In this document: in pieces, positions 1-57,867 of the stretch
How positions within the stretch are numbered: the stretch's first letter is position 1
Layout: every line of letters begins with the position of its first letter
Translations under genes and position numbers: made by a program
Notes under the pieces: model-generated
Seen by the model: the letters and a program-made list of their open reading frames with translations, nothing else
Told to the model about the DNA's origin: nothing
Databases searched by the model: none
Assembly: GCA_040382515.1 (NCBI GenBank)
Contig: JBEIFH010000004.1
Location: 2,470-66,469 of the forward strand
Origin: Chlamydiia bacterium
Lineage (GTDB): Bacteria > Chlamydiota > Chlamydiia > Chlamydiales > RGXB01
Reading direction: 5' to 3'
DNA length: 64,000 nt

Positions 1-1
1 A

Positions 2-355
2 AAAGCCGCAGAGGGAGGCCCTAATATCTACTACATAGGCGCTTATATTCTTTCGCCAACTCCCCCTTTTGCGGTCAAAAAGCACTCCATTGTCCCTTTT
101 CAGCACCCCGATTTTTACTCGACAGATTCATTAGTCAAAAAAATTTTAAATATGCACTGCATTTTTCCTATAGGGATTGCGTTAAAGGGGGAGAAGATCG
201 TGGTTTCTTATGGTGAAAGTGATGCGGCACTCAAGTTGATGGTACTAGACAAGAAAAAGCTTTTGGAAAGTATGAAGGCGACCAAATATCAAAAAACGGT
301 CGACTTCTTGGTAAAACCTTCAGGGATTTTTTGTAAAGAATTCACAACCGGCTAG
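2..355 (+). CDS. 3' end of a CDS running off the window start; possible GH130-like / beta-propeller glycosidase-phosphorylase C-terminus
   Basis: The frame is open from nt 2 (KAAEGGPNIYYIGAYILSPTPPF...) to the stop at 353-355. The tail CIFPIGIALKGEKIVVSYGESDAALKLMVLDKKKLLESM resembles the last blade of GH130/GH43-type propellers (vFpcG...g..l.iyYGaaDt). This was recalled by eye only. Confidence 0.35.
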   Translation, partial: KAAEGGPNIYYIGAYILSPTPPFAVKKHSIVPFQHPDFYSTDSLVKKILNMHCIFPIGIALKGEKIVVSYGESDAALKLMVLDKKKLLESMKATKYQKTVDFLVKPSGIFCKEFTTG

Positions 356-455
356 AGGGTTTTTCTAATCCAAAAAGATTCTTAGTTGATGGCAATCATA
401 GTAAGATCTCTAAAAAAAGTTTCTGCCCTACTTTGATGATATATTTGATGAGCTG

Positions 456-644
456 GTGTGTGAAATCATAGATGATTACGATTGGGCTGATCTAGTGGAG
501 GGGACAAAAGCCGGTATAAGCAAGATCAATTTTGATATCATCTACGATAAAACACTTAAATCTAGCAGAGCTCATATTCACGATGGATGGTGGAACGGTC
601 TTTATGTGGCTGTTTTGAAAAAGCGTGAGAGTCAAATTTTTTAA
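456..644 (+). CDS. hypothetical small protein (possibly a gene fragment)
   Basis: 62-aa ORF with a GTG start, no recognisable motif and no clear RBS. Confidence 0.2.
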   Translation: MCEIIDDYDWADLVEGTKAGISKINFDIIYDKTLKSSRAHIHDGWWNGLYVAVLKKRESQIF

Positions 645-671
645 AAAGGGGCCTTATTGGTCGTCAGTCGT

Positions 672-2804: not shown

Positions 2805-2873
2805 AGGCCCACGGATAATAGAATACTATTTTTATGTAAAGCGCAGGCTGGTTTTTTTAAAAATGCCCGTTGT

Positions 2874-4688: not shown

Positions 4689-4793
4689 GAAAGGTAGGGG
4701 GGTTATTTAAAAAAACTCGTTTAAAGATCTTAGCATAAAAACGGATTAAATCCTACGAGTGAAATAAGAGTCGCTATAAGGGGGGGAATTCTA

Positions 4794-4824
4794 TAAAAAA
4801 ACCCCACTTTTAAAGTGGGGTTTT
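4794..4824 (-). terminator. rho-independent terminator downstream of ntt (hairpin flanked by A/T runs on both sides)
   Basis: ACCCCAC (4801-4807) / GTGGGGT (4815-4821), a 7-bp perfect stem with a 7-nt loop. The A6 run at 4795-4800 gives a U-tract on the minus strand. Confidence 0.6.
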
Positions 4825-4851
4825 AGATTTAAGGACTATTGTCCTGTATCA

Positions 4852-6462
4852 TCAAGTGGCTGGACTTGGTTGACTACTGGCATTAGTCTCAGCTTTTTGC
4901 TCTGTCAACTCTTTGAATTTCGTATTCAATCTGAACACGGAGAGGATCCAGAGTGCTACAACACCGATCGCTATTGGCGCGATGATAGGAGCTAGCTGGT
5001 AAAGAGCGCTGCCTGAGTATGCAGTCAGCAGTCCCATTTGTGTGTAGGAGCCAAGGGATTTTCCACCACGGCCGCCGATCACGTCTACAGCCGCTTTTCC
5101 TTTCACTTTAAGCTCAGGATCTAGCGGGATGTAGGCCATCTCTTTAGTTGGGTCGAAAAGAGAGTACTTTACCGCTTTACCGAAGGCGTTTACAAACAAT
5201 CCTACGATAACCGCAAAGACAATCAACTCTTTATTGATGATCCCTTCTTTGATCGCCTGGACAATTTGCATTCCGCTCGGGATGAGCGTGTTGTTGTACT
5301 GGATCACTCCAAAGAACACAAGGATTCCTGAAATCAGAACCACAGGTGTTACAAGAGCACAGGTTCTCCAGCTAAATAGACGTAGCAAGTTGCTACCCAC
5401 AAGCATCAATGCCACCGCAATACCACCCGTAAGGGTAGAGAGTCCGCCCATAACCTGGTTGTATTCTACCTCGTTCGGGTAAGCGATCTTGATTTGTCCT
5501 TTCCAAACTCCCTCGAAGAGGTTGATGGAGACACCGTAAGCAAGTACGAGCATCGCGATGAAGCCGAGGTATGGGGATTGGAGGATAAGCTTGAAGCTGT
5601 CCATCATGGAAAGCTTGGCTTTCTTCTTTTTGCCTTCGCCCATTTCTTCCGGATTGTAGTGGCGGATGTCTGTTAGAACAGCGCGGTTCATCCAGTAAAA
5701 AGTACCGATAAGAAGGACCCCTGCCGCAATGACGAAAGCCATCAAGACTTTCAACATCAAGCCGGTAGATTCAAAACGGCTCAAGCCGAGGCTGTGGATC
5801 CACTGGGATACGAGGATAATAGCGGGTCCGGACATCAAGAGTCCAAAGTTTCCTACGAAACCGAACATCCCGTAAAAACGGCGTGATTGCTTCACCGGGG
5901 TGATTGCATTCGCAAAAGCCCAGAAAAGGAGGGATAGTACTGCACTGCCCCAAAGCTCGGACAGGATGTAGAAGGTAGTGTAGGTCCAGTTGCCGATGAG
6001 CGGGATCAACCACTTGAAGACGGGGTAGGAGGCTTGCAGGGACTGGATAGTCTCAAGGTTCATGTGGAGTGTTTCTACGTGGGGGTAGATGAAGTAGGGG
6101 AACAATCCGAAGAAGATCAAGAAGGGGAGTGCGGTGACGTAGAAAAGCCCTTCACGCTTGAAGATGTTCGCGGCCTTTGTATATAGGACCATGAAAAGAA
6201 TCGCCGAAATGGTCACTCCGATACCTTTTGCAAAGGCAAGGCTCTCAGCTCCGGCTCCAGGAGCGTTCACGAGGATCGCGTCCTTGGTGTCCCGCAACAC
6301 TGTATAAATAAACAGGATGCAGAACATCATGATGCCCATAGGTAAAAACTTTTTAATTTCGAAAGAGTGGATAGGCCAGAGCAGTTTTCGCCATCCGGTG
6401 AACTCTTCCGTTGCTTGTTGAGACATATGTTTCCTTTGTTCTAAAACTTGTCCTAGTTTCAA
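4852..6462 (-). CDS. ntt: nucleotide transporter of the Ntt/Tlc (ATP/ADP translocase) family
   Basis: 536 aa and polytopic. N-terminal WRKLLWPIHSFEIKKFLPMGIMMFCILFIYTVLRDTKDAILV matches the conserved start of chlamydial/rickettsial Ntt/Tlc proteins. Paralog and substrate cannot be assigned. Confidence 0.92.
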   Translation of the reverse strand: MKLGQVLEQRKHMSQQATEEFTGWRKLLWPIHSFEIKKFLPMGIMMFCILFIYTVLRDTKDAILVNAPGAGAESLAFAKGIGVTISAILFMVLYTKAANIFKREGLFYVTALPFLIFFGLFPYFIYPHVETLHMNLETIQSLQASYPVFKWLIPLIGNWTYTTFYILSELWGSAVLSLLFWAFANAITPVKQSRRFYGMFGFVGNFGLLMSGPAIILVSQWIHSLGLSRFESTGLMLKVLMAFVIAAGVLLIGTFYWMNRAVLTDIRHYNPEEMGEGKKKKAKLSMMDSFKLILQSPYLGFIAMLVLAYGVSINLFEGVWKGQIKIAYPNEVEYNQVMGGLSTLTGGIAVALMLVGSNLLRLFSWRTCALVTPVVLISGILVFFGVIQYNNTLIPSGMQIVQAIKEGIINKELIVFAVIVGLFVNAFGKAVKYSLFDPTKEMAYIPLDPELKVKGKAAVDVIGGRGGKSLGSYTQMGLLTAYSGSALYQLAPIIAPIAIGVVALWILSVFRLNTKFKELTEQKAETNASSQPSPAT

Positions 6463-6562
6463 AAATTTCTTTTAAGAAATCGGTAGTCGAACCGGCTTTC
6501 ACTAGGGGTAATTGTCAGACAACTATTTTACCCTCTTTTACATTAAATGCAAGGGCTCAGTA

Positions 6563-6604
6563 GGAAAAAATAACCCGGCTCTCTGGTAAAAGGGCCGGGT
6601 TATT
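6563..6604 (-). terminator. rho-independent terminator downstream of euo
   Basis: AATAACCCGGC (6569-6579) / GCCGGGTTATT (6594-6604), an 11-bp perfect stem with a 14-nt loop. On the minus strand it is followed by T6 (complement of the A-run 6563-6568). Confidence 0.65.
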
Positions 6605-6625
6605 AAATAAATCTTTTACATTATG

Positions 6626-7141
6626 TTATTTTGAAGGAACAGACTCGGTATAATTTGCCCAGAGAGTTTCATCGATCCTTTCTTGTCGAATGGATTGGAT
6701 CAATTCCCTTTTGATGGCTGCCAAAGATTTTTTTGGGGTTAAAAGGGCCAAAATCTCTCTTGCATTTGCATTTCTCGCCAAAGCGATCATTTGTTCAATC
6801 TGTGTCTTGTTCAGGTGGGGGAAATCCTTCTTTTTGCGACTACCCCTGGGCGCCCTTTGTTTTGGGCTGATACTTGATGGGGCGGGGGGATTAAGAATGA
6901 ATTTTTCAATTAAGGTTGCCAGTTCTTTTGGGTCTCGGCGCTTCATTTTTTTTAAAGTAAAGTGGTGCATGTACCCACCGGTTGTCATCGGAATGTATTT
7001 GCAAAGCTCATTTTCTTTACGAGCCCCCACTTTTTTTATAGCCCGTGCTATGACCGCCTCGAAGTCCTCAAGCGCTCTAGCCTCGGATTTGGTTTCCTTT
7101 GTGTAGCTCATGCCTTTAAGTCCTACTTCTTTAGTTTTCAA
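6626..7141 (-). CDS. euo: Euo, chlamydial early-gene DNA-binding repressor
   Basis: 171 aa. The block KENELCKYIPMTTGGYMHHFTLKKMKRRDPKELATLIEKFILNPP matches my recollection of the conserved Euo core (ENELC.YIPM..GY.HHFT.KKMK). The family is restricted to Chlamydiae. Confidence 0.75.
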   Translation of the reverse strand: MKTKEVGLKGMSYTKETKSEARALEDFEAVIARAIKKVGARKENELCKYIPMTTGGYMHHFTLKKMKRRDPKELATLIEKFILNPPAPSSISPKQRAPRGSRKKKDFPHLNKTQIEQMIALARNANAREILALLTPKKSLAAIKRELIQSIRQERIDETLWANYTESVPSK

Positions 7142-7424
7142 ACAGCTTAAAAAACAGATGGATTTTTGTTTAACCCATTTTAAAAGTAATATTTAACACA
7201 AGGTAACTTTCAAAAGCAAGCAAAATTAAAATTTAAACTTTATTCAGTGAGTAAAAAAATTTTCACTTTTTCTGTTATCTAAAATTTTTTTAATCCCTTT
7301 TATAAACTCAGAAAGGAAGCGATTAGGCAAACAAAAAAATAACTCCGGAATTTTAAAATAATTTATTCGTATCAGGGCCCTTTTTTTCAAAGAGATCTTG
7401 TATTTCTTGATTTGATAATTTAAT

Positions 7425-8267
7425 ATGGTACCCTTCATGCCATTGCCTATCATTAAGGGTGCTTCACAGGCCCCAAAAATAAAAAAGTTAGTTGCCGTTG
7501 CCGCCGGAAAAGGGGGGGTAGGCAAGTCCACAGTTTGCGCAGGTTTGGCTCGGGCAGCTTCTGTTAGGGGGCTCAAAGTGGGCGTTTTGGATGCCGACGT
7601 GTACGGCCCCTCCGTCCCCATTTTATTTCCGGCTGATGTGTCTCCGAAGGTGGAGCAAGGTAAAATCATTCCGGCAGTGAGTGCGGGGATCAAGGTCCTC
7701 TCTGTAACCCATTTCGGATTTGCCGAAACAGCGACCGCTTTTAGGGCTCCTGTTGTCAACATGTTCTTGCAGCAGTGCATGCACCAAGTAGACTGGGGTG
7801 AACTAGATGTCCTTTTTGTCGACTTCCCTCCCGGCGTGGGCGATGTTCACCTCTGTTTATTGCAGGAATGGGCATTTTCTGGTGTTGTTCTTGTGACTTT
7901 GCCCAATCGGATCAGCCTCAGCGATGTCGAAAAGGCCTGTTTGTCCTTTTTGGATATGGGCGTTCCGGTGAGCTGCGTTTTAGAAAACATGGCTTTTACT
8001 GGCCAGGAGGGGGAGGGTAGTGCCCCCCTTTTTGGCAGCGTTGCTATTAAGCCTTTGCTAGAACTAAGCAAAGCGCCGCTGAATAAAAAATTGCCGTTTG
8101 ATCCCAAATTCACTGCGCTTATTGACCAAGGGGATAACCCGTACATGCAATCGAGGCTAACCCCTATGGCAGCGCATCTCCAAACAGTAGAAAAAGAGCT
8201 TTTTGATCTGCTTGATGCCGCCCCTGTCCCCGATGTCTACCCGATGCTTTTGGAGTGGAAACTATGA
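7425..8267 (+). CDS. mrp: Mrp/ApbC/NBP35-family Fe-S cluster carrier ATPase
   Basis: VAVAAGKGGVGKSTV deviant Walker A, LDADVYGPSVP and DFPPGVGD. The start could be a downstream Met. Confidence 0.9.
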   Translation: MVPFMPLPIIKGASQAPKIKKLVAVAAGKGGVGKSTVCAGLARAASVRGLKVGVLDADVYGPSVPILFPADVSPKVEQGKIIPAVSAGIKVLSVTHFGFAETATAFRAPVVNMFLQQCMHQVDWGELDVLFVDFPPGVGDVHLCLLQEWAFSGVVLVTLPNRISLSDVEKACLSFLDMGVPVSCVLENMAFTGQEGEGSAPLFGSVAIKPLLELSKAPLNKKLPFDPKFTALIDQGDNPYMQSRLTPMAAHLQTVEKELFDLLDAAPVPDVYPMLLEWKL

Positions 8268-8539
8268 ACGGAACTTTTTTAGAAATGAAGCAGCTCGATC
8301 TAAAAACGGTAGCCCTTTTTTACAGCGATGGTACTGTGAAAAAGCTTTTCTTGAGCACAGTTCAAAAAAATTGCGCTTGCAGCCGTTGTAAAGGGAAAGA
8401 GCCTTTACTTAAAGGGGACGTAATTGTTTCAAAAATCACCTCCGTTGGCAGGTACGGACTGAAATTCCATTTTTTAACGGGTTGTCAACAGGGGATATTT
8501 TCCCACCGGCAATTGCGGGAGATCCCATGCGATATTTGA
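8264..8539 (+). CDS. DUF971 (gamma-butyrobetaine hydroxylase-like N-terminal) domain protein
   Basis: FYSDGTVKKLFLSTVQKNCACSRC...VGRYGLKFHF..GCQQGIFSHRQLREI fits the DUF971 pattern (C.C..C, G.Y, GiY...L). The ATG at 8264 overlaps the mrp stop (ATGA). Mrp-DUF971 adjacency is common. Confidence 0.7.
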   Translation: MNGTFLEMKQLDLKTVALFYSDGTVKKLFLSTVQKNCACSRCKGKEPLLKGDVIVSKITSVGRYGLKFHFLTGCQQGIFSHRQLREIPCDI

Positions 8540-9507
8540 AGTTTTTGTGGATAGCCCCTTTTATTTTTCTTTTATCGTTTCGGAGCTTGCCGGACAAGAA
8601 CACCCCGTTGCAAAAGTGGATGGAACCTGACTCTAAAAAGCTCCATATTCTTGTGACCACAAGGATGTGTGCAAGTCTTGTTGAGGAGGTCGGGGGTGAT
8701 CGGGTGCACGTCTGGACACTGATCGATGAAGATTTAGATCCCCACTCTTACCAACTTGTGAAAGGGGATGCAGAAAAATTTAGGCGCGCCGATCTTATAA
8801 TTGCGAACGGTTTGCATTTAGAACATGGGAGAAGTCTACAAAATCTTCTAGAGGAAAAAGAGGCGCTGTTTTTAGGCGATAAGATTTTCTCTTTGTCCCC
8901 CGAGCTTTTTTTGCCTATGGACAATGGGATAGACCCCCATTTTTGGATGGATGTCTCTTTATTCAGCAGATCTGTTCCCTATATAGTGGAGGCGTTACAA
9001 AAAAAAGATCCTCTGCACAGCCAAGAGTACGCGGTCCGCGGAGGGCAGCTGTTATTGCAATTGGATCTTTTGGATCATAAAATTCGTGTTCTTATGTCAA
9101 AGATCCCGTTGGAAAAAAGATATTTGGTCACAAGCCACGATGCATTCCAGTACTTTGCTCGACGCTATTTGGTTAAAAACGGGGCTGAAGGGGATCATTT
9201 GGACCATTTCTTAGCTCCGGAAGGGGTCTCCCCTGATGGCCAAATAGGGGCTTTAGACATCCAAAAAATCATCCGCCATGTGGTGAAAAATAGGGTTCCT
9301 GTTGTGTTTGCCGAATCAAATATATCGAAAGACTCGTTGAATAAAATCATTGAAGCCTGTCGCTCGCAAGGGGTGGAGCTCCGGTTGTCGAGATCCGATC
9401 TATACGCGGATTCGATGGGGGAAGAATCCTATATTAAGATGATGGAACACAATGCTAGGGTTATCCAAAGTGAACTTTATCCGATTCATCCCGATGAGAA
9501 TTTTTAG
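8527..9507 (+). CDS. ytgA: metal ABC transporter substrate-binding protein (TroA/ZnuA/MntC family; YtgA)
   Basis: Signal-like MRYLKFLWIAPFIFLLSF, then HILVTTRMCASLVEEVGGDRVHVWTLI..DLDPHSYQL...DPHFW. The ORF is open from 8482, but the Met at 8527 gives the signal peptide. Confidence 0.85.
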   Translation: MRYLKFLWIAPFIFLLSFRSLPDKNTPLQKWMEPDSKKLHILVTTRMCASLVEEVGGDRVHVWTLIDEDLDPHSYQLVKGDAEKFRRADLIIANGLHLEHGRSLQNLLEEKEALFLGDKIFSLSPELFLPMDNGIDPHFWMDVSLFSRSVPYIVEALQKKDPLHSQEYAVRGGQLLLQLDLLDHKIRVLMSKIPLEKRYLVTSHDAFQYFARRYLVKNGAEGDHLDHFLAPEGVSPDGQIGALDIQKIIRHVVKNRVPVVFAESNISKDSLNKIIEACRSQGVELRLSRSDLYADSMGEESYIKMMEHNARVIQSELYPIHPDENF

Positions 9508-9522
9508 CATGCAGGGTTCAAA

Positions 9523-10272
9523 ATGACGAAAAAGAGAATTGAGCTCGAAAATTTGAGTATTTATTACGGCAAAAGATGCGCTATTTGGGACATCAATGTG
9601 GAGTTTCAAACCCATAGTTTGACCGGGATCTTGGGCCCAAACGGCTCGGGTAAGAGCACCATGGTTCAAGGGATGCTGGGGTTGATCCCTATCACCTCCG
9701 GTTCTGCTCGGCTCCACGGCTCTACCGTCGCTTACGTTCCACAAAAAAAAGAGATCGATCTAGATTTTCCCATCAGCGTTTTTGAGCTGGTTCTCATGGG
9801 CGCTTACTCCCGATTGGGCTGGCTGAAATGGTATAACAAGAGGGAAAAGGCGCGCGCTTTGGAAATTATGGAGCGTTTGGGTATCTCAGCTATCAAGCAG
9901 AGGCAGATCCAAGAGATTTCTGGAGGGCAGCTTCAACGGGCGATTGTGGCGAGGGCGCTCATGCAGGATGTCGATTTTTATGTACTCGACGAGCCGTTTA
10001 CCGGGATCGATTTTGCCACCGAAAAATTGCTTTTATCCTTGTTTAAAGAGTTGCGGGATTTGAAAAAAGGGGTCATCCTTGTCCACCATGACCTCACGAA
10101 TGTAGAGGAGATCTTCGACCACGTGGTGATGGTCAATTCACGCCTTGTGGAGGCGGGTCCTACCAAGCAAGTTTTCAATCCTGAGTCTATTCGGAAAACC
10201 TATGGAGAGAAAAACTCTCTTCTGGAAGAAGCAAGTCATCTTTTTGAAAAAGTGCAAAGGGGAAAATCCTAA
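9523..10272 (+). CDS. ytgB: metal ABC transporter ATP-binding protein (YtgB)
   Basis: Walker A GPNGSGKST, signature SGGQLQR, Walker B FYVLDEP. Confidence 0.92.
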   Translation: MTKKRIELENLSIYYGKRCAIWDINVEFQTHSLTGILGPNGSGKSTMVQGMLGLIPITSGSARLHGSTVAYVPQKKEIDLDFPISVFELVLMGAYSRLGWLKWYNKREKARALEIMERLGISAIKQRQIQEISGGQLQRAIVARALMQDVDFYVLDEPFTGIDFATEKLLLSLFKELRDLKKGVILVHHDLTNVEEIFDHVVMVNSRLVEAGPTKQVFNPESIRKTYGEKNSLLEEASHLFEKVQRGKS

Positions 10273-11488
10273 TGGGATTCAGCTTCCTTGACTTTTTCAC
10301 CCATCCTGTTTTGCAGGCCTCTACGATAGCAACACTTTTTTTATCTGTTTTTTGCTCTCTTTTGGGTTGTGTCCTTTTTATCAAAAGGAAGGCTCTCCTC
10401 GCGGAAACGCTCTCCCACGCCGCCTATGTTGGAGTTTTATTGGGGTTGATTTTTTAGGATTGGATTTTATAGCAGGTGCCCTCAGCTCTGTTTTTGGGGT
10501 GCTCCTTTTGACAAATTTAGAGAAAAAATTCCGTTTGCCTCAAGATGTAGCTTTGTCGGTAACGCTGGCTGTTTCATTGGCTTTAGGGACTCTGTTTGCC
10601 TCAATTAGCCAAAACACATGGCCGATTATTTATAAACAGTCCCTTATTTTTCTATACGGACAGGCAGCAACGATGCTCAATAAGCATGTTTTGTATTTTT
10701 CACTGATTTCCGTTTTATCGATTTTGTTTCTTTTCGTTCGCTTTAGAGTGGTCGCCTGGAGTGCATTCGATCCGATTTTCTTTAAAGCGCAAAAAATTGA
10801 TTTTCGCTTTTTAGATGCTCTGTTGTTTTTGCTTTTGTCTTTTGGGGTTGTTATAGGATCGCGTGCATGTGGGATCATGCTTGTGAGTGGTATGATGATA
10901 GCACCCGCAATATTTGCCAGAGCTTGCACACATCAATTTAAAATGATGCTTTTTTTAGCATCAATTATGGGTGCCTTGTGCGCCCTTTCAGGAAATTTTT
11001 TGTCGGTCTATATTCCCCAAGCCCTGGGGATGGAATTGACGCTCCCTACAGGTCCGCTCATTCTAGTAAATCTTGCCCTATTGACCTTTGCGTCCCTCTT
11101 CTTTTCTCCTAGGGACGGGTATCTTGTCCGCATAGTCCGGACAATAAGGTTTTTTTTAAAAATAGAAATTGAGAATGCACTCAAGGCTCTTTATAAAAAC
11201 AATAAGATCGGACGAGGTATTGCCTGTTTACTAGCCCTTTTAGGGATGCAGAAAAACGGGCGCTTGACCTTGAAAGGGGAACAGAAGGCGCAAAATCTGA
11301 TCCGTTTGCATCGCCTTTGGGAATTATATTTGTCAAAAGAATTGGGAATTACCGGTATGCGGATCCATGAAAGCGCTGAGGAGATGGAGCATATTCTTGA
11401 TAGGGACATGGAAAAAAAGCTGACCGAGATTTTGCAGGATCCGACCCATGATCCGCACAACGCTATTATACCGAAGAGGGTCGAGTAA
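10272..11488 (+). CDS. ytgC: metal ABC permease fused to a DtxR-family repressor domain (YtgC-YtgR), interrupted by a frameshift at a T6 run
   Basis: The 61-aa ORF 10272-10457 (MGFSFLDFFTHPVLQAS...LSHAAYVGVLLGLIF*) is the permease N-terminus. ORF 10352-11488 continues it in the -1 frame (LGLDFIAGALSS...). The C-terminal about 110 aa (LIRLHRLWELYLSKELG...HESAEEMEHIL) look DtxR-like. Confidence 0.8.
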
Positions 11489-12441
11489 TGGGTAGCAATC
11501 CTTATTGGAACCAGGACTTTTTCGGCACGATTTTTTTGTTGCTCAAAAGGGCGTTTTTATGGCTTTTCGGACTCATTCCTACAGAGAGTTTAGTTGAAGA
11601 CGACGTGGCTTTTATCGCTTTGGCCGGGATTGGAACCGCCTCCGTCTTATCGGGTCTATTCCTAGTGGTGAAAAGGATGACTCTTTTGATCAATTCTCTT
11701 TCCCATACGATTTTGCTTGGAATAGTAGTTACAGGACTCATTTTTGTCTCCTTTGGGCTAAGCCCCTTTTCAACGGTTGGATTCTTTGTTGCAGCTGTTT
11801 TGACAGCCCTATTAACAATGTTCAGCACCCATGTGTTAGTAAAAATATTCCACGTCCAGTCCGAGGCTGCAGTTGGCTTCATGTTTACGACCCTTTTTGC
11901 TCTGGGGGTGCTGTTCTCCACTTTATATTTTCGCAACACTCACCTTGGGGTCGAGGCCGTTTTTGGAAATTTAGATGCCCTTACGCACCTGGATCTTCGT
12001 CCGATTTTTTTTGTGGTGGGGATAAATCTTGTTTGGATGCTCCTTTTTTTCACAAGGATGCGTTTTGTTTTATTCGATCCTGTATTTTCCAAGGTGACCG
12101 GTCAAAAAGCGGTACCTGTACTGGCTGCACAGATGTTTGTCGCCTCCTTGACAATAGTGGGAGGATTTCAGTCGGTTGGAGTGGTGATCATCATGGCGTT
12201 TTTTACCTTACCTGTTCTTATCGCAAGGATCTATGCACCATTTTTAAAAAAAATAGGTGTTTTTGGGGTGCTGGCCTCTTTTTTTGCGGCTCTTTTTTCC
12301 GTTGCTCTCTCTCGAGATATCTTAACCCACTACGCAACCCCTGTATCCACATCGGCTATCGCCGCACTTTCTCTTTTCTCGATTTATATAGTCCTTGGAT
12401 TGACCAATTTAAAAAAAGTCGATAAAGTTGAGCATTCATGA
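11488..12441 (+). CDS. ytgD: metal ABC transporter permease (YtgD)
   Basis: 317-aa polytopic protein of ABC-3 permease type. TAATG overlap with ytgC. Confidence 0.85.
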   Translation: MGSNPYWNQDFFGTIFLLLKRAFLWLFGLIPTESLVEDDVAFIALAGIGTASVLSGLFLVVKRMTLLINSLSHTILLGIVVTGLIFVSFGLSPFSTVGFFVAAVLTALLTMFSTHVLVKIFHVQSEAAVGFMFTTLFALGVLFSTLYFRNTHLGVEAVFGNLDALTHLDLRPIFFVVGINLVWMLLFFTRMRFVLFDPVFSKVTGQKAVPVLAAQMFVASLTIVGGFQSVGVVIIMAFFTLPVLIARIYAPFLKKIGVFGVLASFFAALFSVALSRDILTHYATPVSTSAIAALSLFSIYIVLGLTNLKKVDKVEHS

Positions 12442-13550
12442 TAAAAGTTGCCCTATTCGGATCGACAGGCAGTGTCGGAAAAATGACGCTAGAGGTTCTG
12501 GAGAAATTCCCTAACGATTTTAGTATTCATGCTCTAGTGGCCCATCGATCCTCAGAGCTTCTTGTAGAACAGGTAAGAAAGTACAAACCGCAAATCGTGG
12601 TGTTATATGATGAAGCAGAAGCCTTGAAAGCGGAAAGGATCTTATCAAAACAGGTCCATTTTGGCAGAGAAGGGCTTTTAAGGGCTCTGGATTCTGCCGA
12701 TTTGATGGTGCAATCGATGGCATCCACTGTCGGAATTGAAGTCACGATCGAGGCTGCGAAAAGGGGGATTAAGATTGCGATTGCAAATAAAGAGACGATC
12801 ATCGCAGCTCACCATTTGCTAAAACCTTACAATCCGGTGCTTTGCCCAATAGACTCTGAGCATAGCTCCCTCAAAAAATTATACGAAATTCAACGCCCCG
12901 TCAAGACCACCATAACCGGCTCCGGAGGCCCTTTTTTGCACCGGCCCCTCAAAGAGTTTCCAACGATCACTCTTAAAGAGGCTTTAATCCATCCGAATTG
13001 GCCCATGGGGGCGCACAACACGATCAACTCCTCAACGATGTTCAATAAAGCGCTCGAGGTGATGGAGGCCCACTCTCTCTTTGGAATGGCTCCTAAGGCG
13101 GTGATAGAGCCCACGAGCCGCATCCACGCTTTTGCTGAATATGAAGATGGTATGACCCAAATGGTCGCCTATCAACCTGACATGCGTGTGCCGATAGCAC
13201 ATGCTCTGGGGGTGGAAAGGACTCTACCATTTCCATTTAGAAAAAACCTTGATTTGAGCAAGATCGAGTTTTTCCCTATCGACCCTGAGAGATTTCCCCT
13301 TTTCCAATTAGCTTATGAGGCAATAAAGACGGAATGCGGCCCCCTTTTTCTGATGTTTCTCAACGAGTTTTTAGTGGATGATTTTCTCAAAGGGGGTCTT
13401 GGTTGGCTCGATTTGCAGCACAAACTTCAGCAAGGATTTGAGTCCTTGCCACAATTTTCGATTGATTCTATTGAAGCGATCGAAGAACTTAAAAAGATTA
13501 CTAAGAGTATACATAAATGCATTACCTCAACATCCTATACGGCCTCCTAG
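12438..13550 (+). CDS. dxr: 1-deoxy-D-xylulose-5-phosphate reductoisomerase
   Basis: MIKVALFGSTGSVGKMTLEV (NADPH loop), PIDSEHSS, NKALEVMEA. It follows ytgD as in Chlamydia. Confidence 0.93.
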   Translation: MIKVALFGSTGSVGKMTLEVLEKFPNDFSIHALVAHRSSELLVEQVRKYKPQIVVLYDEAEALKAERILSKQVHFGREGLLRALDSADLMVQSMASTVGIEVTIEAAKRGIKIAIANKETIIAAHHLLKPYNPVLCPIDSEHSSLKKLYEIQRPVKTTITGSGGPFLHRPLKEFPTITLKEALIHPNWPMGAHNTINSSTMFNKALEVMEAHSLFGMAPKAVIEPTSRIHAFAEYEDGMTQMVAYQPDMRVPIAHALGVERTLPFPFRKNLDLSKIEFFPIDPERFPLFQLAYEAIKTECGPLFLMFLNEFLVDDFLKGGLGWLDLQHKLQQGFESLPQFSIDSIEAIEELKKITKSIHKCITSTSYTAS

Positions 13551-15271
13551 GTTTAAGCTTCCTCGTCTTCATTCACGAGTTGGGACATTTTCTCGTTGCA
13601 CGATTTTTTAAAATGCGCGTGGAGACATTCAGCATCGGATTCGGTCCTACACTATTTGCCAAGGTGTATAAAGGGGTATTGTACCGGATTGCGATCATCC
13701 CGTTTGGGGGGTATGTGAAGATCTTAGGTATGGACGAGGATTCCGAAGATGAGGGGAGTTACTATAAAAGCAAGCCTTATCAAAGGCTGTTGATGGTCCT
13801 TGCAGGTCCTGTCATAAATATTCTGTTTGCTTTTCTCGGTTTTTGCTTCATTTACTTTTCCGGTGGATTTTTAAGGGATTCTGTCGATTCCTCAAAGCTT
13901 ATTGGAATGGTGGAGCCCAGTTCTCAACTCTACGAGAAGGGGGTCCGTTGCGGCGATATTTTGGAGTCTATAAACGGAAACGAGGTCAGAGGACGTAAAG
14001 AACTGTTTTTCCAGGCGATTCTAGATACAAAAAAAAGCATTGTGAAGGGAATTTCCATAAACTACTCGGCTGGCACTAAAAGTTCATTTGCCTACGAGGT
14101 GCAGTCTAAAAAAGAGAAATTTAGAGGTTTGGAATTAAATACGATCGGTTTAAGTGCTCCTGCCTCCTATATGATCTATGACTCGAAGAGGGTACGTGGG
14201 ACATCGATGCTCAGCGATTCTCCTATGAAGGATTCTGGGATCCAGGATGGGGATAGGCTTCTTTGGGTGAATGGAGAACTTGTTTTTTCCAGAGAACAGC
14301 TGCAGTCCCTTTTAAATGAAGAAAAGGCCTTTTTAACGATTCTTAGAGATCATAAGGTTCTTCAGGTGAAGGTCCCAAAAGTGCCACTTTCTGAAGTTGC
14401 AATGACACCCTACGAGAAAGAGGAGATCAACGACCTGAGGTTTGACGCCAAGTTTTCTCTGGTTGAAGATCTTAAATTTATCCCTTACCTAATCGATCAT
14501 GACGGCATAGTAGGGAACAAGTTTGAAAAAATGGAGGACGCCCTACTAAAACCAAACGATAGAATACTCGCTGTCGATGGGATTAAAACAGTTTTTGGTG
14601 CCGATGTGATGCAGCTTTTGCAGAAAAAACATGTAGTGGCGATCGTTGCGCACGGGAACTATCAACCGATTGAGCAGAAAGGGTCTGATAGTCACTATTT
14701 TCAAGAGGTCCATTTTAAGGACCTTGATAGGGTGATTGCATCGATAGGGGTGCAGGGTGCAGGGTATGAGCTAGGGAATTTACGGTTGCTAAAAAGCGTA
14801 TCTCCGATGGAAATAGAATACCAGGGGCAAAAATTCTCCCGCTTGGGGATTTCTCTTGTCGACAGACAGGTCTCAGTGAACCCAAATCCGTTTATTCAAT
14901 TAAAAGATACATTCTTTGAGATTTCTAAAATTTTTGGGCACTTAACGCAAGGGGAATTGAATCCAAAACATCTCAGCGGTCCGGTCGGGATTGTGGGGGT
15001 TATGCAAAAGGGTTGGTCAGAGAGTTTCAAAGACGGCGCATTCTGGCTATCGACGATCAGCTTGAATCTTGGGATCATGAATCTATTGCCTCTTCCTGTT
15101 TTGGATGGGGGCCACATAGTGCTCAATTTTTTTGAAATTCTTTTTCGAAAACGGTTGAGTAGAAAGGCGATGGAGCGGATTTTTTTACCGTTTGTATTCT
15201 TGTTGATTGGATTTGCAGTTTTCGTAACATTTCACGACATAGCAAAATTACTTGGGATGATAAAGTTTTAA
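13517..15271 (+). CDS. rseP: RIP site-2 metalloprotease RseP/YaeL (M50) with PDZ region
   Basis: HELGHFLVARFFKMRVETFSIGFGP (HExxH) and C-terminal NLLPLPVLDGGH. Confidence 0.9.
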   Translation: MHYLNILYGLLGLSFLVFIHELGHFLVARFFKMRVETFSIGFGPTLFAKVYKGVLYRIAIIPFGGYVKILGMDEDSEDEGSYYKSKPYQRLLMVLAGPVINILFAFLGFCFIYFSGGFLRDSVDSSKLIGMVEPSSQLYEKGVRCGDILESINGNEVRGRKELFFQAILDTKKSIVKGISINYSAGTKSSFAYEVQSKKEKFRGLELNTIGLSAPASYMIYDSKRVRGTSMLSDSPMKDSGIQDGDRLLWVNGELVFSREQLQSLLNEEKAFLTILRDHKVLQVKVPKVPLSEVAMTPYEKEEINDLRFDAKFSLVEDLKFIPYLIDHDGIVGNKFEKMEDALLKPNDRILAVDGIKTVFGADVMQLLQKKHVVAIVAHGNYQPIEQKGSDSHYFQEVHFKDLDRVIASIGVQGAGYELGNLRLLKSVSPMEIEYQGQKFSRLGISLVDRQVSVNPNPFIQLKDTFFEISKIFGHLTQGELNPKHLSGPVGIVGVMQKGWSESFKDGAFWLSTISLNLGIMNLLPLPVLDGGHIVLNFFEILFRKRLSRKAMERIFLPFVFLLIGFAVFVTFHDIAKLLGMIKF

Positions 15272-15367
15272 CTCTATTTTTTGTAAACAAAATTTCACAT
15301 CTTCCTTGATGCAAACGACGTTTTTTGAGTAGAATGTTGGACTCATACAATTCAAGCTGTTAGTTCT

Positions 15368-17635
15368 ATGTGCATTCTAAGGTTCGTGTTCTTTTGTCTT
15401 CTCCCTTTTTTTTCCCTGGCCGCTGCATCAAAGGAGATTACCTATTCTCTTTACATCTATCTTAACGGTGTCGAACTTGGAGTTTACGATATCCCCTACA
15501 ATCTTAATGGGGCCTTAACTCTAGATTCCCCCGGATTCAGAAAAGCGATTTACCCTTACCTGAATCAGGTCGGTATAGGCGAAATGAACGAGTTTCTCTA
15601 TGGCCAGGGTTCTATTTTTTCCACATTGGAAGAGGATAATTTCAGCACCCCGGTTGCGGATGATAAGGGCGAAATCACTGTCGATTACGATGACGCTGCG
15701 AAGGTGCTGTACGTTTGGGTTCCCGATGCTTATGTGAATCAAAGTTTTTTAGATAAGCGGGCCCAAGAGGTTCAAGTCCCTTTGCTCAAATCGGGCACGA
15801 CAAGCGGCTACTTAAACATCACCTATGGGCATAAAATTTTCCATAAATTCTATAAAGAGCTCAATATTCCCCAAAACCAGGATTTTGCAAATTTTGATCT
15901 ATCGTTGAATATAAAAGACTACGTTTTTCAGGGGTTTTTATATGCCGCAACAACCAATCCGGGAATTATTAACAGGGGAAACCTAATCTTCACAAAAGAT
16001 TTTGAAGATATGAAAGCGCGCCTTGCCGTTGGAGATCAGGGGAGCTATAGTTTTGGATTGCAAAATTCGATCCCCCTTTTAGGTGCTTCGTTGTGCAAGG
16101 GGATGAATGTGTTTGTAAACCCGACGATTGCTTCGGCATCGAGAAATGAATTTTTCTTGAATGCTCCTACCAAGGTAGAGGTTTATATAGATGGGATTCT
16201 GTATCAAACGATAGAGCTGCCTGCCGGGCCCCATGTTCTGCAAAATTTTCCCATTATTCAGGGTCTAAACAACGTAAAGCTCAAGATCACGAATCCGATT
16301 GGTTTAGAGCAGGTGATTTCCTTAAATTCCTTTTACGAACCAAATCTACTCCCCCCCAAAGAGATCGAGTATTTTGTAACGGCAGGGTTTCCAAACTATA
16401 ACGAAGAGGGATTCAATTACAATTACCAGTTCGATAGGCCGACTATATTGTCAGCGGTCCGTTATGGGTTTGTCGACAATTTCACTTTAGGAACCTACCT
16501 GCAGGGGAACTTCACGGGAGCCTTTTTTGGAGGTCAGGCAGTTTACGAGTACAGCGCAGTGAGAGCTTTACTGGACGTCGGGTTCTCAGCTCCTAAGGAT
16601 AAGGAGATAGCTGCTAAAATGCGTCTTGCTCTTTCAAAAGGTCTATTAAGCCGAGCACCCAAGCTCTCATTTGATTATGAATTATCATTGGAAGCGCAAG
16701 AAAAGTATTTCAGTTATTTGCAGGCACCAATTATCGGAAACCCTATCTATCTCTCTCTGGCAGCCAGGCTTTCCAAAAAACTTCCCTGGAACATCAAAAC
16801 AAGCTTCACCGGATCGTATAATTTTGAGAGGAGCAGTAAGGACCGCTACGTAGCTCAGTTTAAATTAGAGAAAACCTTTTTGGACTCTTTTTTAGCGAGA
16901 TTTCTTTTGGTTTTAAAGGGAAGAGATACTCGCCCGGCGGGGGTATCTAGTTGGAAGAACGACTATTTTGTAGCTTTTGGTATAGATTATGTCCCCAAGG
17001 ACACAAATTTCAGGCTGACGACAGATTATAACCAGGAGCTCGATGCTCTTAATGCGAATGCCAATTATTCGACTCCGCTAAAAGGGGATACCAAGCTGGA
17101 TTTCAATATCGGGGGATCTTTTCTACAGAAAGGGGCTTCCGGAACAGGTTATATGAATTACACGGGTCAAAGATTTTCTGCCGGAATCAGTCAATATTTA
17201 GCTAACGGTCCACTCACGTTTAAAGTTCCCGATTTTCCGACAAATCGAAATTCCTCTATAGCAGTGACACAGATTAACGCAGGGACAGCATTGGCTTTTG
17301 CGGATGGATTCGTTGCCTTATCAAGGCCGATCGACGACAGTTTTGCTCTCGTTGTCAGCAAGAAAAATGATCAGTTGCGTTATTTAAGGGCCTACAAGGA
17401 GAGTTTTAAGAATCGATATAATGAGTCACTTGGGTCTATGCCGGCCGTTGTCCCCTCCCTAAGAAGTTATAAAGAGACCGATATACATGTCGATATTTAC
17501 AAGAAGAATTCGTGGAATATTGAGGCGTCGGAGCAGGTAAAAGTTCGCCCCTCCTACAGAAGCGGTACTTTGATTGAGCCTAAAACGATCGTCTTGAAGG
17601 CATCGAGTAAGCCGTTAAAAAGAAAAGCGCCCTAG
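15368..17635 (+). CDS. outer-membrane usher-like protein (PapC/FimD family-like), orphan
   Basis: Signal peptide MCILRFVFFCLLPFFSLAAA. The N-terminal YSLYIYLNGVELGVYDIPYNLNGALTLD is like an usher N-domain. TKVEVYIDGILYQTIELPAGPHVLQNFPIIQGLNNVKLKITNPIGLEQ parallels the PapC/FimD segment (..V.V.QNG..IY...VP.GPF.I.D......G.L.V...E..G). No chaperone or pilin gene is nearby. Confidence 0.45.
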   Translation: MCILRFVFFCLLPFFSLAAASKEITYSLYIYLNGVELGVYDIPYNLNGALTLDSPGFRKAIYPYLNQVGIGEMNEFLYGQGSIFSTLEEDNFSTPVADDKGEITVDYDDAAKVLYVWVPDAYVNQSFLDKRAQEVQVPLLKSGTTSGYLNITYGHKIFHKFYKELNIPQNQDFANFDLSLNIKDYVFQGFLYAATTNPGIINRGNLIFTKDFEDMKARLAVGDQGSYSFGLQNSIPLLGASLCKGMNVFVNPTIASASRNEFFLNAPTKVEVYIDGILYQTIELPAGPHVLQNFPIIQGLNNVKLKITNPIGLEQVISLNSFYEPNLLPPKEIEYFVTAGFPNYNEEGFNYNYQFDRPTILSAVRYGFVDNFTLGTYLQGNFTGAFFGGQAVYEYSAVRALLDVGFSAPKDKEIAAKMRLALSKGLLSRAPKLSFDYELSLEAQEKYFSYLQAPIIGNPIYLSLAARLSKKLPWNIKTSFTGSYNFERSSKDRYVAQFKLEKTFLDSFLARFLLVLKGRDTRPAGVSSWKNDYFVAFGIDYVPKDTNFRLTTDYNQELDALNANANYSTPLKGDTKLDFNIGGSFLQKGASGTGYMNYTGQRFSAGISQYLANGPLTFKVPDFPTNRNSSIAVTQINAGTALAFADGFVALSRPIDDSFALVVSKKNDQLRYLRAYKESFKNRYNESLGSMPAVVPSLRSYKETDIHVDIYKKNSWNIEASEQVKVRPSYRSGTLIEPKTIVLKASSKPLKRKAP

Positions 17636-17772
17636 ATCCTAGATTTTTAAAATCCAGTGCGCTTTTCAAAAGGCGCTCAATCCCTTGTCCCGTCTGGTAA
17701 ATAGGCAAAAAATAGACGCATGAGAGACCCCATTTTTTAAAAATAACATCTCAATAAAACAGTTTTTTTCTT

Positions 17773-17798
17773 AAGCGCTCAAAAAAAGTGCGCTTTTT
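17773..17798 (+). terminator. weak hairpin + T-run in the usher-cfa spacer (possible terminator)
   Basis: AAGCGC (17773-17778) / GCGCTT (17790-17795) with an 11-nt A-rich loop, then TTT. It lies about 140 nt after the stop of the upstream gene. Confidence 0.25.
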
Positions 17799-17859
17799 AA
17801 AAAGGTAATTCTAAAAAAAAATTGATTTTTTTGTTTCGCGACTGTTAATAGCCGGTTAT

Positions 17860-19026
17860 ATGAAAAAGGTTCTTTTTTTGTGTGCAGTTTGCACTCTTTT
17901 ATCCTTACAGCATTCCGACTCGAAAGAGATCATCAATCAATTAACTTTTTCGGCAGGAATTCAGATTAATGGATCAGACCCCTCAGATATTCAGTTAAAA
18001 GACAATCGATTTTATGATCGGGTTTTAAAGGACCAATCCTTGGGTTTCGGGGAGAGTTACATGGAGGGTTGGTGGGATGCCGACGCTCTTGACGATTGTA
18101 TGTATCGGATCGCACGCGCCAATCTTCAATCACGATTCAAAAAAACCCCCTCCTTTTACTGGGCATATCTGAAAGCCAAACTTCTCAACCGTCAAGATAA
18201 AAGTAAAAGCCTTGATGTGATCCGTCAGCACTACCAGCTCGGAAATGATCTTTACAAAGCTATGCTTGATCCGACTATGACGTATAGTTGCGGTTATTGG
18301 AAAAATGCTAAAACATTAGAGGAAGCCCAATTAGCCAAATACGATTTGATTGCCCGTAAGCTCGGGATTAAAAGCGGTATGCGCGTTTTGGATATCGGAT
18401 GCGGATGGGGCGGCTTTGCTAAATACATCTCCTCAAAATATGGTGCAAAAGTTACTGCAATTACGTTGTCTGAAAACCAAGCTATTCTAGCCCGTGAAGT
18501 TTGCAAAGGGTTAGACGTTGAGATTAGGGTGCAAGACTATCGCGATTTAGACGAGAAATTCGATCGTATCGTAGAAATCGGTATGTTTGAGCATGTCGGG
18601 GTCAAAAATTATAGAGAATTCATGGAGATTTGTTACCGATCGCTACAAGACGGAGGTATGGTAATGTTACATACTATCGGTAGTAACGTAAGCGTCCTAA
18701 ATAGAGACCCCTGGATTGATAGGTATATATTTCCGGGTGGGCAGCTCCCTTCCATTTCCCAAGTGGGAAAATCGATAGAGGGGGTTTTTGTAATGGAAGA
18801 TTGGCACAATTTTGGAACCCATTACGATAAAACTTTGATGGCATGGTTCAAAAATTTTGATAGCAATTGGCCTAGCTTGAAAGAGAACTATTCCCCGGAA
18901 TTCTACAGAATGTGGAAATTTTATCTTTTATCGTGTGCCGGTTCGTTTAGGGCTCGCCAGATACAGCTATGGCAAGTAGTCCTAGTCAAGAATGGGGTCC
19001 TTGGAGGCTACGAAACAGTAAGATAG
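17860..19026 (+). CDS. cfa: cyclopropane-fatty-acyl-phospholipid synthase (SAM-dependent)
   Basis: Collinear with my recollection of E. coli Cfa over nearly its full length (GESYMEGWWD, YSCGYWK, RVLDIGCGWGGFAKY, VGMFEHVG, MEDWHNFG.HYDKTLMAW, CAGSFRARQIQLWQVV). The N-terminal 22 aa are a hydrophobic leader absent from E. coli Cfa. Confidence 0.93.
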   Translation: MKKVLFLCAVCTLLSLQHSDSKEIINQLTFSAGIQINGSDPSDIQLKDNRFYDRVLKDQSLGFGESYMEGWWDADALDDCMYRIARANLQSRFKKTPSFYWAYLKAKLLNRQDKSKSLDVIRQHYQLGNDLYKAMLDPTMTYSCGYWKNAKTLEEAQLAKYDLIARKLGIKSGMRVLDIGCGWGGFAKYISSKYGAKVTAITLSENQAILAREVCKGLDVEIRVQDYRDLDEKFDRIVEIGMFEHVGVKNYREFMEICYRSLQDGGMVMLHTIGSNVSVLNRDPWIDRYIFPGGQLPSISQVGKSIEGVFVMEDWHNFGTHYDKTLMAWFKNFDSNWPSLKENYSPEFYRMWKFYLLSCAGSFRARQIQLWQVVLVKNGVLGGYETVR

Positions 19027-19210
19027 TCCTTTCAATTTTTTAAAGACATGCAATAGGCCCCCTTTTAGTTACGAGACTATCGTCAAAATTCGCCCGGATC
19101 TCGATACCTCTGTAACATACAAGGGGAGTTTTAAAAGCTTGGGTTAAAGATCCCTTTTTTATCCCTTTTTTCCACTTCTCTTCAAAAAACTAGTAATTAG
19201 CCGATTTTTT

Positions 19211-19630
19211 TTGACCGACCCCGATCTAAAGTTCCATCCTAAGTTGCCGGCAAGCTTCTTGCAGCATTTTTATAAGATTCAAGAGGAGTTGCCGGCTAAA
19301 CGGGTCGGATTCGCTCTTGATATTTTTGCACCGGACATAAAAGAAAATATTACGGTTTGCGGCTTATCGGTTAAAAAATGGGAGTCTCGCTTCTGGAAGG
19401 ATAGAGTCTCTAGCAAACTGATGCCCCATCTGGAACTTTATAGTGCTGATATTGATACGACGTTTTGCTTGATTGACCGGACCTTATCCTCTAACCCGAT
19501 AAGGGTAGCCGGGGACTACACCTGTAAGCACATACCTTGGCATGAAAATTTCCACCTTACACTAGAACCGGGAGAATATGAGGCCTATATGACGCAGAAT
19601 CGATCCTCGTCATGGATGGCAAATAACTAA
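19211..19630 (+). CDS. hypothetical protein, possibly the surviving 3' part of a decayed gene (glycosyltransferase-like?)
   Basis: 139-aa ORF with a TTG start and no RBS. DIDTTFCLIDR loosely recalls the 'PIDTTFALY' block of some GT-like proteins. The upstream 180 bp have short ORF pieces in other frames. Confidence 0.3.
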   Translation: MTDPDLKFHPKLPASFLQHFYKIQEELPAKRVGFALDIFAPDIKENITVCGLSVKKWESRFWKDRVSSKLMPHLELYSADIDTTFCLIDRTLSSNPIRVAGDYTCKHIPWHENFHLTLEPGEYEAYMTQNRSSSWMANN

Positions 19631-19671
19631 CGAAAAACAAATTAAGCACCATGAGATAACCGGGAATCACC

Positions 19672-38412: not shown

Positions 38413-40705
38413 TTACATCAAGTCGGGCCTTAGGAGCACTTTCCTGGCTTTTGCTCCGTCCGGGGGGCTGATGATCCCTTTACTTTCCAGTTCATCAATT
38501 AGGCTTGCAGCTCTGGCATATCCGATCTTCAGTTTGCGTTGTAAGAAGGTAGTGGAGGCATTGTTGTGCTGCACAACAATTTCCAGAGCTCGAGAATACA
38601 TCGAATCGCCCCCCTCTCCATCTTCAGCCTCGTCGGAGAAAAGGGGATCCTCCGAAAGAGTGTCAAAAGATTGGATCAGGTAATTAGCGGGGCGTTGATC
38701 CTGAATAAAAGAGACGACCCGATTGATATCCTCATCTCTGATGTAGACACCTTGTGCGCGCAATATTTGCGATGTGCCGGGGGGTAGAAAAAGCATATCC
38801 CCATTGCCAAGCAGCGCCTCGGCGCCATTTTCGTCTAAAATGATCTGGCTATTGATACGGCTGGCAACTTTGAAGGCGATCCTGGTGGGGAAGTTCGCTT
38901 TGATCAATCCTGTGATTACTTCACGAGAGGGGCGCTGTGTTGCCAGCACTAGATGGATGCCAACCGCGCGCGCCATTTGTGCAATACGGGCAATAGGTGT
39001 CTCAAGATCGGCGTTGGTGGACATCATCAGGTCTGCGAATTCATCAATCACTGCAACAATGTGGAACATTTTTTCGGGTACCGGAACACTCAACGATTGT
39101 TCAAGAGTCAGATCTTGCTTTCTTCCATTAAAAGCGTGGATATTGCGCACACCAAGCTGTTTTAGAATCTCATAGCGGAGCTGCATCTCCTGCACAATCC
39201 ATTTCAAGGCGGCGTACGCTCCGTTAGGCTCAGTGATTACCGGTGCAATCAAGTGGGGAAGGTGACTGAAGGGGGTCAATTCCACTTTTTTCGGATCTAC
39301 CAAAATCAGTTTGATATCGTCGGGGGAGGCGTTCATTAAAATCGACATGATAATCGTGTTGATACAGACCGATTTTCCCGAACCGGTTGCACCGGCTATG
39401 ATACAATGTGGCATTTTTGCCAAATCACAGATCACCTCTTCGCCGCTCACGGTTTTCCCTAAAAGAACCGGTATGTGAAATTTTTTCTGGTTGTTTTTGT
39501 AGTAGATCAGCATTTGCTTGAATCCCACCTCTTGCGGAGTCGGGGAGGGTATTTCCACGCCTACCGCAGCTTTACCGGGGATAGGAGCAAGGATACGGAT
39601 AGATTTAGCCTGAAGATTGAGGGCAATGTCATTTTCAAGGGCTTTGATTTTTTGGACTTTGACACCGATTGCAGGATGCACTTCAAAGGAGGTAATAGTA
39701 GGTCCGCAATTGATCTCGCCCACTTTCCCTTCAATACCAAAACTCAAAAGGGTCTCTTCCAGAATTCTTGCCTGGCGTTCCAGATCCTTTTTCAGTAGCG
39801 GTTGGTCAATTTTTTTAGCGTCTGTCAAAAGTGAGATCGGAGGTAATTCATACCCGTTTGTGGTGACCTTTTTTTTGTTCTCCAGTTTTATGGGAGCAGC
39901 CAGTTCACTCGCCCGAATCTTCGGCAAAAGCTTTTTTTTTTTCAAAAACCTCCGGCTCTTCCAGATTGACTTCTACAATAGCGTCCTCTTCTGCTACTTT
40001 GACTTTTTTGGGCCAAACACGACGGGGTGCATCCAGGGCAGTCAGGCTAAATGAAGAAGTTTCATCCACGGGGGGTTCTTTTTTAAGGCGGTAGATACGA
40101 TCTTTGATGTGATCCACAAGGGTTAGAGGGCTGATTTCAAACAGGGACATCAATGAGATGATTAGAACCAGAAGAAATGTGAAAAATGTTCCTGTAGGGG
40201 TGAGGAGGATCTTAAGGTTGAAATAGGGTAAACCCTGGTAGAGGTAATCGGCAAGAACTCCTCCCAAAAAGACCTTGGTAATTTTGGTTGGATAGGGCCC
40301 ATCGCCAACTAAAGTATCGAACAAAACAAATTTTTTTAGGTTTATGAAGAGAGAGCTACCAGAAATTAGCGAAAGCAAAATGCAAGAGGAGAGAAGAAAA
40401 AAAGAAAAGATCACAATTTTTGCAGCAGGTTGTTCGAACGGATCCTTTAGCAGATGCTTGACACCCCAAAAAATCAGAAAAAAGGCGAGCATGAACGATT
40501 GGATTCCCAAAAGGTAATTGAGTGCAAAACTTGTAAAATATCCCACTAGGCCTAAAAGATTGGCCTCGGGTTTTTGGTGATGGAATGAGACAAGAGCTAG
40601 CAGTAAAAGAAGCGCTGAAGCACAAAGGATGAAACCAAAAATCTCACTGTGAGTTTTATGCGGTTTATCTTCCATAGTGTCTGATTTAAACGAAACTTTA
40701 GCCAT
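38413..40705 (-). CDS. ftsK: DNA translocase FtsK, read as two ORFs because of a frameshift in an A11 run
   Basis: ORF 39905-40705 is the 4-TM FtsK N-domain. ORF 38413-39945 is linker + motor (GATGSGKS, DEFADLM) + gamma winged helix (LQRKLKIGYARAASLIDELE). The frames switch inside the coding-strand A11 (T-run 39932-39942 on +). Confidence 0.88.
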
Positions 40706-40746
40706 TTACCTAAAGGTTATGAATAAAGCTTATTTAAAGCAAGAAG

Positions 40747-40820
40747 GGCGAACGACCGAACTCGAACCCACATTAGCCGGATCCTTGAATCCGGAGTACT
40801 GTTGACTGAGCCAAGGTTAC
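40747..40820 (-). pseudogene. degenerate tRNA-His-derived copy (pseudo-tRNA)
   Basis: Exactly 100 bp upstream-offset copy of the tRNA-His locus including its 3' flank. The T-loop and 3' acceptor strand are retained. The 5' acceptor strand and the D and T stems no longer pair. The anticodon stem CCGGA/TCCGG encloses 8 nt (TTCAAGGA). Confidence 0.45.
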
Positions 40821-40846
40821 AAATAAAGCTTAATTGTAGCAAGAAG

Positions 40847-40920
40847 GGCGAACGACGGGACTCGAACCCGCGACAGCCAGATCCACAATCTGGAGCTCTA
40901 CCGACTGAGCTACGTCCGCC
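40847..40920 (-). tRNA. tRNA-His (GTG)
   Basis: GGCGGACGTAGCTCAGTCGGTAGAGCTCCAGATTGTGGATCTGGCTGTCGCGGGTTCGAGTCCCGTCGTTCGCC. Cloverleaf with the encoded G-1:C73 pair typical of bacterial tRNA-His, anticodon loop TTGTGGA. CCA is not encoded. Confidence 0.93.
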
Positions 40921-57752: not shown

Positions 57753-57867
57753 CGAACACTCTTAAAATTGATATTTTTTTCTTTCTAGGGATTTTTTCTA
57801 TTTCCTGCAAGTGGGGGGGTAAAATCCTGGTAGGACCCTCTCTTGGCTACATGGAAGCGAGGGTAGC

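Follow-up and report, generated by a model that had tools for sequence, protein, structure and literature searches.

The window (the whole 64,000-nucleotide stretch of DNA that was analysed, C4:2470-66469) belongs to a 1.39-Mb, 46-contig metagenome-assembled genome (MAG) that is 92.65% complete; among named genomes it is nearest to MAGs of uncultured Chlamydiae/Chlamydiota from lakes and other waters, above all 'Chlamydiae bacterium K_DeepCast_35m_m2_096'. As assembled, the ftsK gene of this genome is divided between two ORFs (Table 1), which lie in different frames and share a 41-nt overlap across a run of eleven A (reverse strand: ..GAGCCGGAGGTTTTTG-A11-GCTTTTGCCGAAG..). An FtsK_4TM domain (PF13491, E 3.5e-11) was detected between residues 18 and 113 of the first, while the second contains the FtsK_alpha domain (PF17854, 7e-33), the FtsK_SpoIIIE motor (PF01580, 4e-61) and, at residues 446-505, FtsK_gamma (PF09397, E 2.3e-25); the Walker A motif GATGSGKS is found in its translation. 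All of the elements that mark an FtsK/SpoIIIE translocase are present -- the 4TM anchor, the alpha domain with its P-loop motor, and the winged-helix, KOPS-reading gamma domain -- though in the window as assembled they are not on one chain, as they are in the A10 form of the gene (11 public sequencing runs and contigs L107 and L108, described below) and in 30 relatives.

Table 1. Features of the split ftsK gene and of the similarly split ytgC gene in the window.
Feature	Position	Strand	Evidence
Homopolymer A11 (T-run on the forward strand)	39932-39942	-	Sequence; A10 in independent assemblies
ftsK 5' part, N-terminal 4TM membrane domain, 266 aa	39905-40705	-	ORF and PF13491
ftsK 3' part, linker, alpha, P-loop motor and gamma, 510 aa	38413-39945	-	ORF, Pfam, read-through in relatives
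Whole ftsK, with A10 a single 2,292-nt ORF, 763 aa	38413-40705	-	Relatives, protein record, contigs
ytgC (ABC-3 permease, PF00950), T6 run	10450-10455 (split ORFs 10272-10457 and 10352-11488)	+	MAG

The original prediction placed the membrane domain and the linker, motor and gamma domains on separate ORFs, in different frames and overlapping only across the A11 run, and held that removal of one A would give a continuous FtsK of about 760 aa. The sequence, the ORF list and the Pfam matches bear this out: with one A deleted, a 763-aa ORF results, reading ..EEPEVFEKKKLLPKIRASELAAPIK.. across the junction. The run codes for the lysines of an E-K-K-K sequence where the membrane domain passes into the linker; no other homopolymer of the window is as long, and its length of eleven letters is reached by just one other run in the genome. 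From the product lengths computed for A9 to A12, the last 9 codons of the 266-aa ORF (AFAEDSGE*) are an out-of-frame tail due to the extra A.

All five congeners in which the region is assembled have ftsK as a single ORF of 750-764 aa (86-98% identity), the closest match being to the 763-aa ORF of a congener, with 98% identity over residues 1-763. A single ftsK ORF is also found in all 24 other Chlamydiota families of the order, whose FtsK shows 51-58% identity, and no split ftsK was seen among the 30 genomes of relatives. At the site itself the nearest species reads GAA AAA AAA AAG (A10, EKKK), three congeners read GAA AAA AAA AGA (A9, EKKR), and one reads ATC AAA AAG CGG (A5, IKKR). A run of at least 9 A is thus kept in five of the six genus members with the region (the species of the window and four of the five congeners), and these sequences indicate A10 or A9 as the in-frame states of the run; since the remaining congener encodes the same K-K-R peptide with A5, such a run is not obligatory. 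The frameshift is absent from all congeners with the region, where the run is in frame at A10, A9 or A5.

The 510-aa ORF begins at a TTG codon (39945-39943), and one of the options put forward in the original prediction was split expression as two polypeptides, which would mean a separate membrane anchor and a motor protein started from this TTG. The N- and C-terminal functions of E. coli FtsK are separable, and a GGAGG is found just upstream of the TTG. The spacer between them, however, is only 3 nt, and strain variants as well as the nearest species have GGAGC in place of GGAGG, so the motif was rejected as a Shine-Dalgarno sequence for the TTG; nor is the gene split in any of the relatives or in the independent assemblies. 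The TTG is an internal artefact of the Phe/Glu frame rather than a start codon, and expression in two pieces is exceedingly unlikely.

The window was compared with the Logan contigs of public metagenome runs from lake, freshwater and drinking-water sources, which drop rare variants and carry no allele fractions. Contigs spanning the run were found in 11 runs from 9 studies (X1-X4 and X6-X12; assembler depth 4-11x), and in all 11 it is one letter shorter, A10, with the missing letter placed at 39931/39932. Apart from this letter, the contigs of X1-X4 show no difference from the window over 701 nt; those of X6-X12 are strain variants with 5-13 SNPs, likewise one run letter short. X5 lacks a spanning contig, its contigs leaving a gap at 39910-39941; this gap was considered as a sign of a length bubble, but its break points are unlike those of a T10/T11 bubble at k=31 and it is uninformative. 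Two further contigs, L107 (JGI 3300044729 Ga0453742_0011591) and L108 (ENA ERZ18672059 scaffold_16489), match the window's ftsK over 2,293 nt with no mismatches and one gap; both have A10 and are identical at the other 2,292 positions, so that the two halves of the gene, apart from the run, are the same as in the intact alleles. The exact 763-aa product is present in the protein collection, where its 90% cluster holds 763-aa members on about 31 contigs along with two 753-aa members (about 33 contigs with a full-length product); split products are on record for three contigs, the MAG's own of 72,886 nt and two more, each seen once. The original prediction had listed a homopolymer-length error in the assembly as its first option, with A10 and an intact gene as the outcome that would point to it; A10 with an intact gene is what the contigs of the 11 runs and L107 and L108 contain, and this option is supported by them. 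Just upstream of ftsK, in a tRNA region, a contig of X1 runs directly from 40737 to 40838 and so omits exactly 100 nt, and several contigs break within 40680-40915; this 100-nt stretch may be variable between samples, or may represent an assembly issue.

Other lengths of the run have been called as well. A 66-nt query with the A11 form at its centre yielded read-sized contigs from two further studies, X25 (drinking water; 236 nt, depth 2.3) and X26 (freshwater; 163 nt, depth 2.6), which match it ungapped, with T11. One JGI contig, from a strain with 96.5% identity, has A9, giving a split into 271 and 504 aa, and on another JGI contig a 265-aa product ending ..EKKAFTEDSSE corresponds to A8, a length deduced here from the protein rather than read from the DNA. 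Across these calls the length thus ranges from 8 to 11 around a strong mode of 10 and varies more than at a stable site, with the off-modal lengths confined to isolated or very shallow contigs. These fit stutter of an A10 run, in PCR or in sequencing, at low depth; a scatter from A8 to A11 is also to be expected from real slipped-strand variation, and at the level of contigs the two look alike.

The genome context weighs against real variation of this kind dominating an assembly. MutS and MutL are intact, which gives no reason to expect a hypermutator background, and searches of the genome yielded neither a second, compensating copy of ftsK nor an FtsZ homologue. Assembly of the divisome in Chlamydia trachomatis, which also lacks FtsZ, depends critically on FtsK (PMC11975371), so that a gene that was really broken would be costly here, and frameshifted alleles of a single-copy ftsK in an FtsZ-less cell should be far too rare to dominate the assembly. 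The domain architecture is the same as that of C. trachomatis FtsK, in a Chlamydiota genome likewise without FtsZ; the present protein comes from an environmental lineage, and nothing unusual was found in it. At window positions 59049-63813 (forward strand) there is a compact dcw-type cluster, mraY - murD - LysM-domain protein - ftsW - murG, in which the genes overlap or directly abut one another; such a cluster in a genome without FtsZ is as expected for Chlamydiota.

Composition would also account for a run at this site. Lysine is encoded by AAA in 74% of cases, and the genome contains 792 A/T runs of length 8 and 152 of length 9, so that an A9-A10 run in ftsK is to be expected. Beyond that length the counts collapse (11 runs of length 10, 2 of length 11), and among KKK tripeptides AAAAAAAAA makes up 16%, as against the 40% expected from AAA usage, the commonest form being AAAAAAAAG; together, this suggests selection against coding A-runs of at least 9.

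Against this background it may be asked whether the A9-A10 tract is biologically variable, with replication slippage producing A8-A11 subpopulations, or is transcriptionally slippery, so that some FtsK-N of 266 or 271 aa is made. Lengths of 8 (from the protein), 9, 10 and 11 have indeed been called across assemblies, a run of at least 9 A is retained in most of the genus precisely where the linker follows the membrane domain, and by computation the +1 and -1 slipped frames stop within 9-18 codons, which would give clean N-domain products. The isolated or very shallow contigs behind every off-modal length speak against this, as do the coding of the same K-K-R with only A5 in one congener, the agreement of the run with AAA usage and A/T-run abundance, and intact mismatch repair, and it is very unlikely that the tract behaves in either way. 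In Thermus thermophilus dnaX, programmed transcriptional slippage on an A9 run gives two protein forms, and the A11 run of Citrobacter rodentium tssM1 (PMC4256274) does so too. The present case is like both in that the run lies at a domain boundary and slipped frames would give a short N-terminal form; unlike in these programmed systems, in-frame A10 is the genomic state here, the run is missing in one congener, and the short form is putative. Use of the in-frame A9-A10 run as a slippery site giving a regulated share of anchor-only FtsK-N beside full-length FtsK is, on these grounds, highly improbable; if it were true, anchor-only FtsK-N would be made by a bacterium that lacks FtsZ and relies on FtsK for its divisome.

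A second broken gene bears directly on the reliability of the MAG consensus. About 74 kb of the MAG (window positions 1-20000 and 30000-64000, and C3:12000-31999) was compared with same-strain contigs, and exactly two single-base indels were found at which all of the same-strain runs agree against the MAG: the ftsK run and a run in ytgC (Table 1). At the latter, four of four runs tested (X1-X4) have T7, the additional T restoring a single frame, and the T6 of the MAG is another consensus error. The deposited MAG annotates both genes as split. Both are housekeeping genes, and both are mended in the independent data, one having gained and the other lost a letter, which is the signature of consensus error and not of biology. 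A miscall between T6 and T7 is unusual for Illumina, a point that counts against this reading.

Such errors are not widespread in the MAG: its length at further long runs, such as T10 at C3:20760, C9 at C3:21785 and T8 at 56667, is the same as in public contigs. A run at window positions 57813-57819 is G7 in the window and in X1, X2 and X4 but G8 in the strain variant of X3; either this G-run is variable in length or the X3 contig is in error. The genome was also scanned for homopolymers (A/T of at least 8, G/C of at least 7) at which a 1-nt change would fuse two long ORFs. There are 14 among 1,181 (1.2%), compared with 1.26% for random positions, so that most of these candidates are simply places where two ordinary genes meet (aroC/aroB, V-ATPase subunits, murD/LysM protein), and the scan gives no evidence of pervasive frameshifting in the genome.

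One of the runs concordant with public data, the T10 at G000:C3:20760-20769 (L094:8761-8770, reverse strand), itself interrupts a gene, leaving ORFs of 699 and 1,053 nt. Contigs of X1, X2 and X4 have T10 as well, so that this frameshift survives the comparison which the ftsK and ytgC frameshifts failed. In paralogues and orthologues the junction lies inside single ORFs of 450-630 aa, and the family has 9 matches in its own genome. The case has the look of a genuine homopolymer frameshift, within an accessory multi-copy family, and is a candidate for a pseudogene, for phase variation or for slippage. A similar T10 candidate at C14:30829 adjoins another member of the same family; no Pfam family was found for these two other T10-split candidates.

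There remains the proposal, also part of the original prediction, that the frameshift is genuine and tolerated: A11 would be real in the source population of the MAG, with RNA polymerase slippage giving a share of A10 transcripts and hence full-length FtsK. Runs of at least 9 A are documented slippage sites, and in Blochmannia frameshifted essential dnaX and dnaG genes persist (PMC3017870), while the Citrobacter A11 run yields two functional TssM forms (PMC4256274). The A11 of ftsK resembles the poly(A) frameshifts of Buchnera and Blochmannia (PMC3017870) in lying within an otherwise intact essential gene of a host-associated reduced genome; it occurs in the shallow contigs of X25 and X26 as well, and outside the run both parts of the gene match intact alleles exactly. 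The endosymbiont frameshifts, however, were confirmed at the DNA level, are conserved between populations and species, and give about 30% in-frame transcripts (PMC3017870), whereas that of ftsK is absent from the 11 runs, from the two otherwise identical contigs and from all congeners. Independent DNA with A11 is limited to the two contigs of 2.3-2.6x; A10 was found in every assembly of at least 4x depth, strain-identical ones included. Conservation among populations or related species without decay is likewise not seen, the congeners having A10, A9 or A5. The absence of any substitution beside the indel gives no sign of time spent as a frameshifted gene, and the ytgC frameshift of the same MAG lies at a T6, a run not long enough to slip efficiently, and public data lack it too. 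With the ftsK frameshift not conserved and this second one unsupported, consensus error is favoured, and a true A11 allele rescued by slippage is very unlikely.

The MAG does differ slightly from the public strains. At L094:12886 (G000:C3:24885), the four runs compared (X1, X2, X4 and X9) have an additional TCT, in frame, together with an A>T substitution, and a few SNPs relative to the MAG, e.g. at window positions 31662, 43756 and 43762, are common to all runs. The SNPs and the in-frame TCT indel, compared with X1-X5, suggest that the MAG was probably assembled from a sample other than those behind the runs compared, and A11 might in principle occur in its source population; contig-level data leave some room for A11 as a minority or sample-specific allele.

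Taken together, the division of ftsK in the MAG is in all likelihood a homopolymer-length error, and very probably not biological. Runs of ten A are commonly miscounted in library PCR, sequencing and consensus calling. The real ftsK of the organism would carry A10, reading GAA AAA AAA AAG (E K K K), and the real product would be a single-chain FtsK of 763 aa with a 4TM anchor, a short linker, the alpha/beta motor and gamma; the MAG consensus would then hold one A too many in the coding A10 run, probably introduced during sequencing or assembly. A10 is found in the independent DNA, the orthologues are intact, and a second error of this kind is present in the MAG; it is from these that we infer a technical cause for the extra A. 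In every material respect the case is like the homopolymer consensus errors known from draft and metagenome-assembled genomes, with a 1-nt indel in a mononucleotide run that breaks a conserved essential gene, contradiction by independent assemblies, and a further instance in the same assembly.

Pseudogene counts, inferences of genome decay or claims of slippage drawn from this MAG would be misled by such errors, and contigs from public runs can separate artefactual from real homopolymer frameshifts in a MAG. The ftsK of this FtsZ-less chlamydial lineage is an ordinary intact chlamydial gene with an in-frame A10 lysine run, and not a novel feature.
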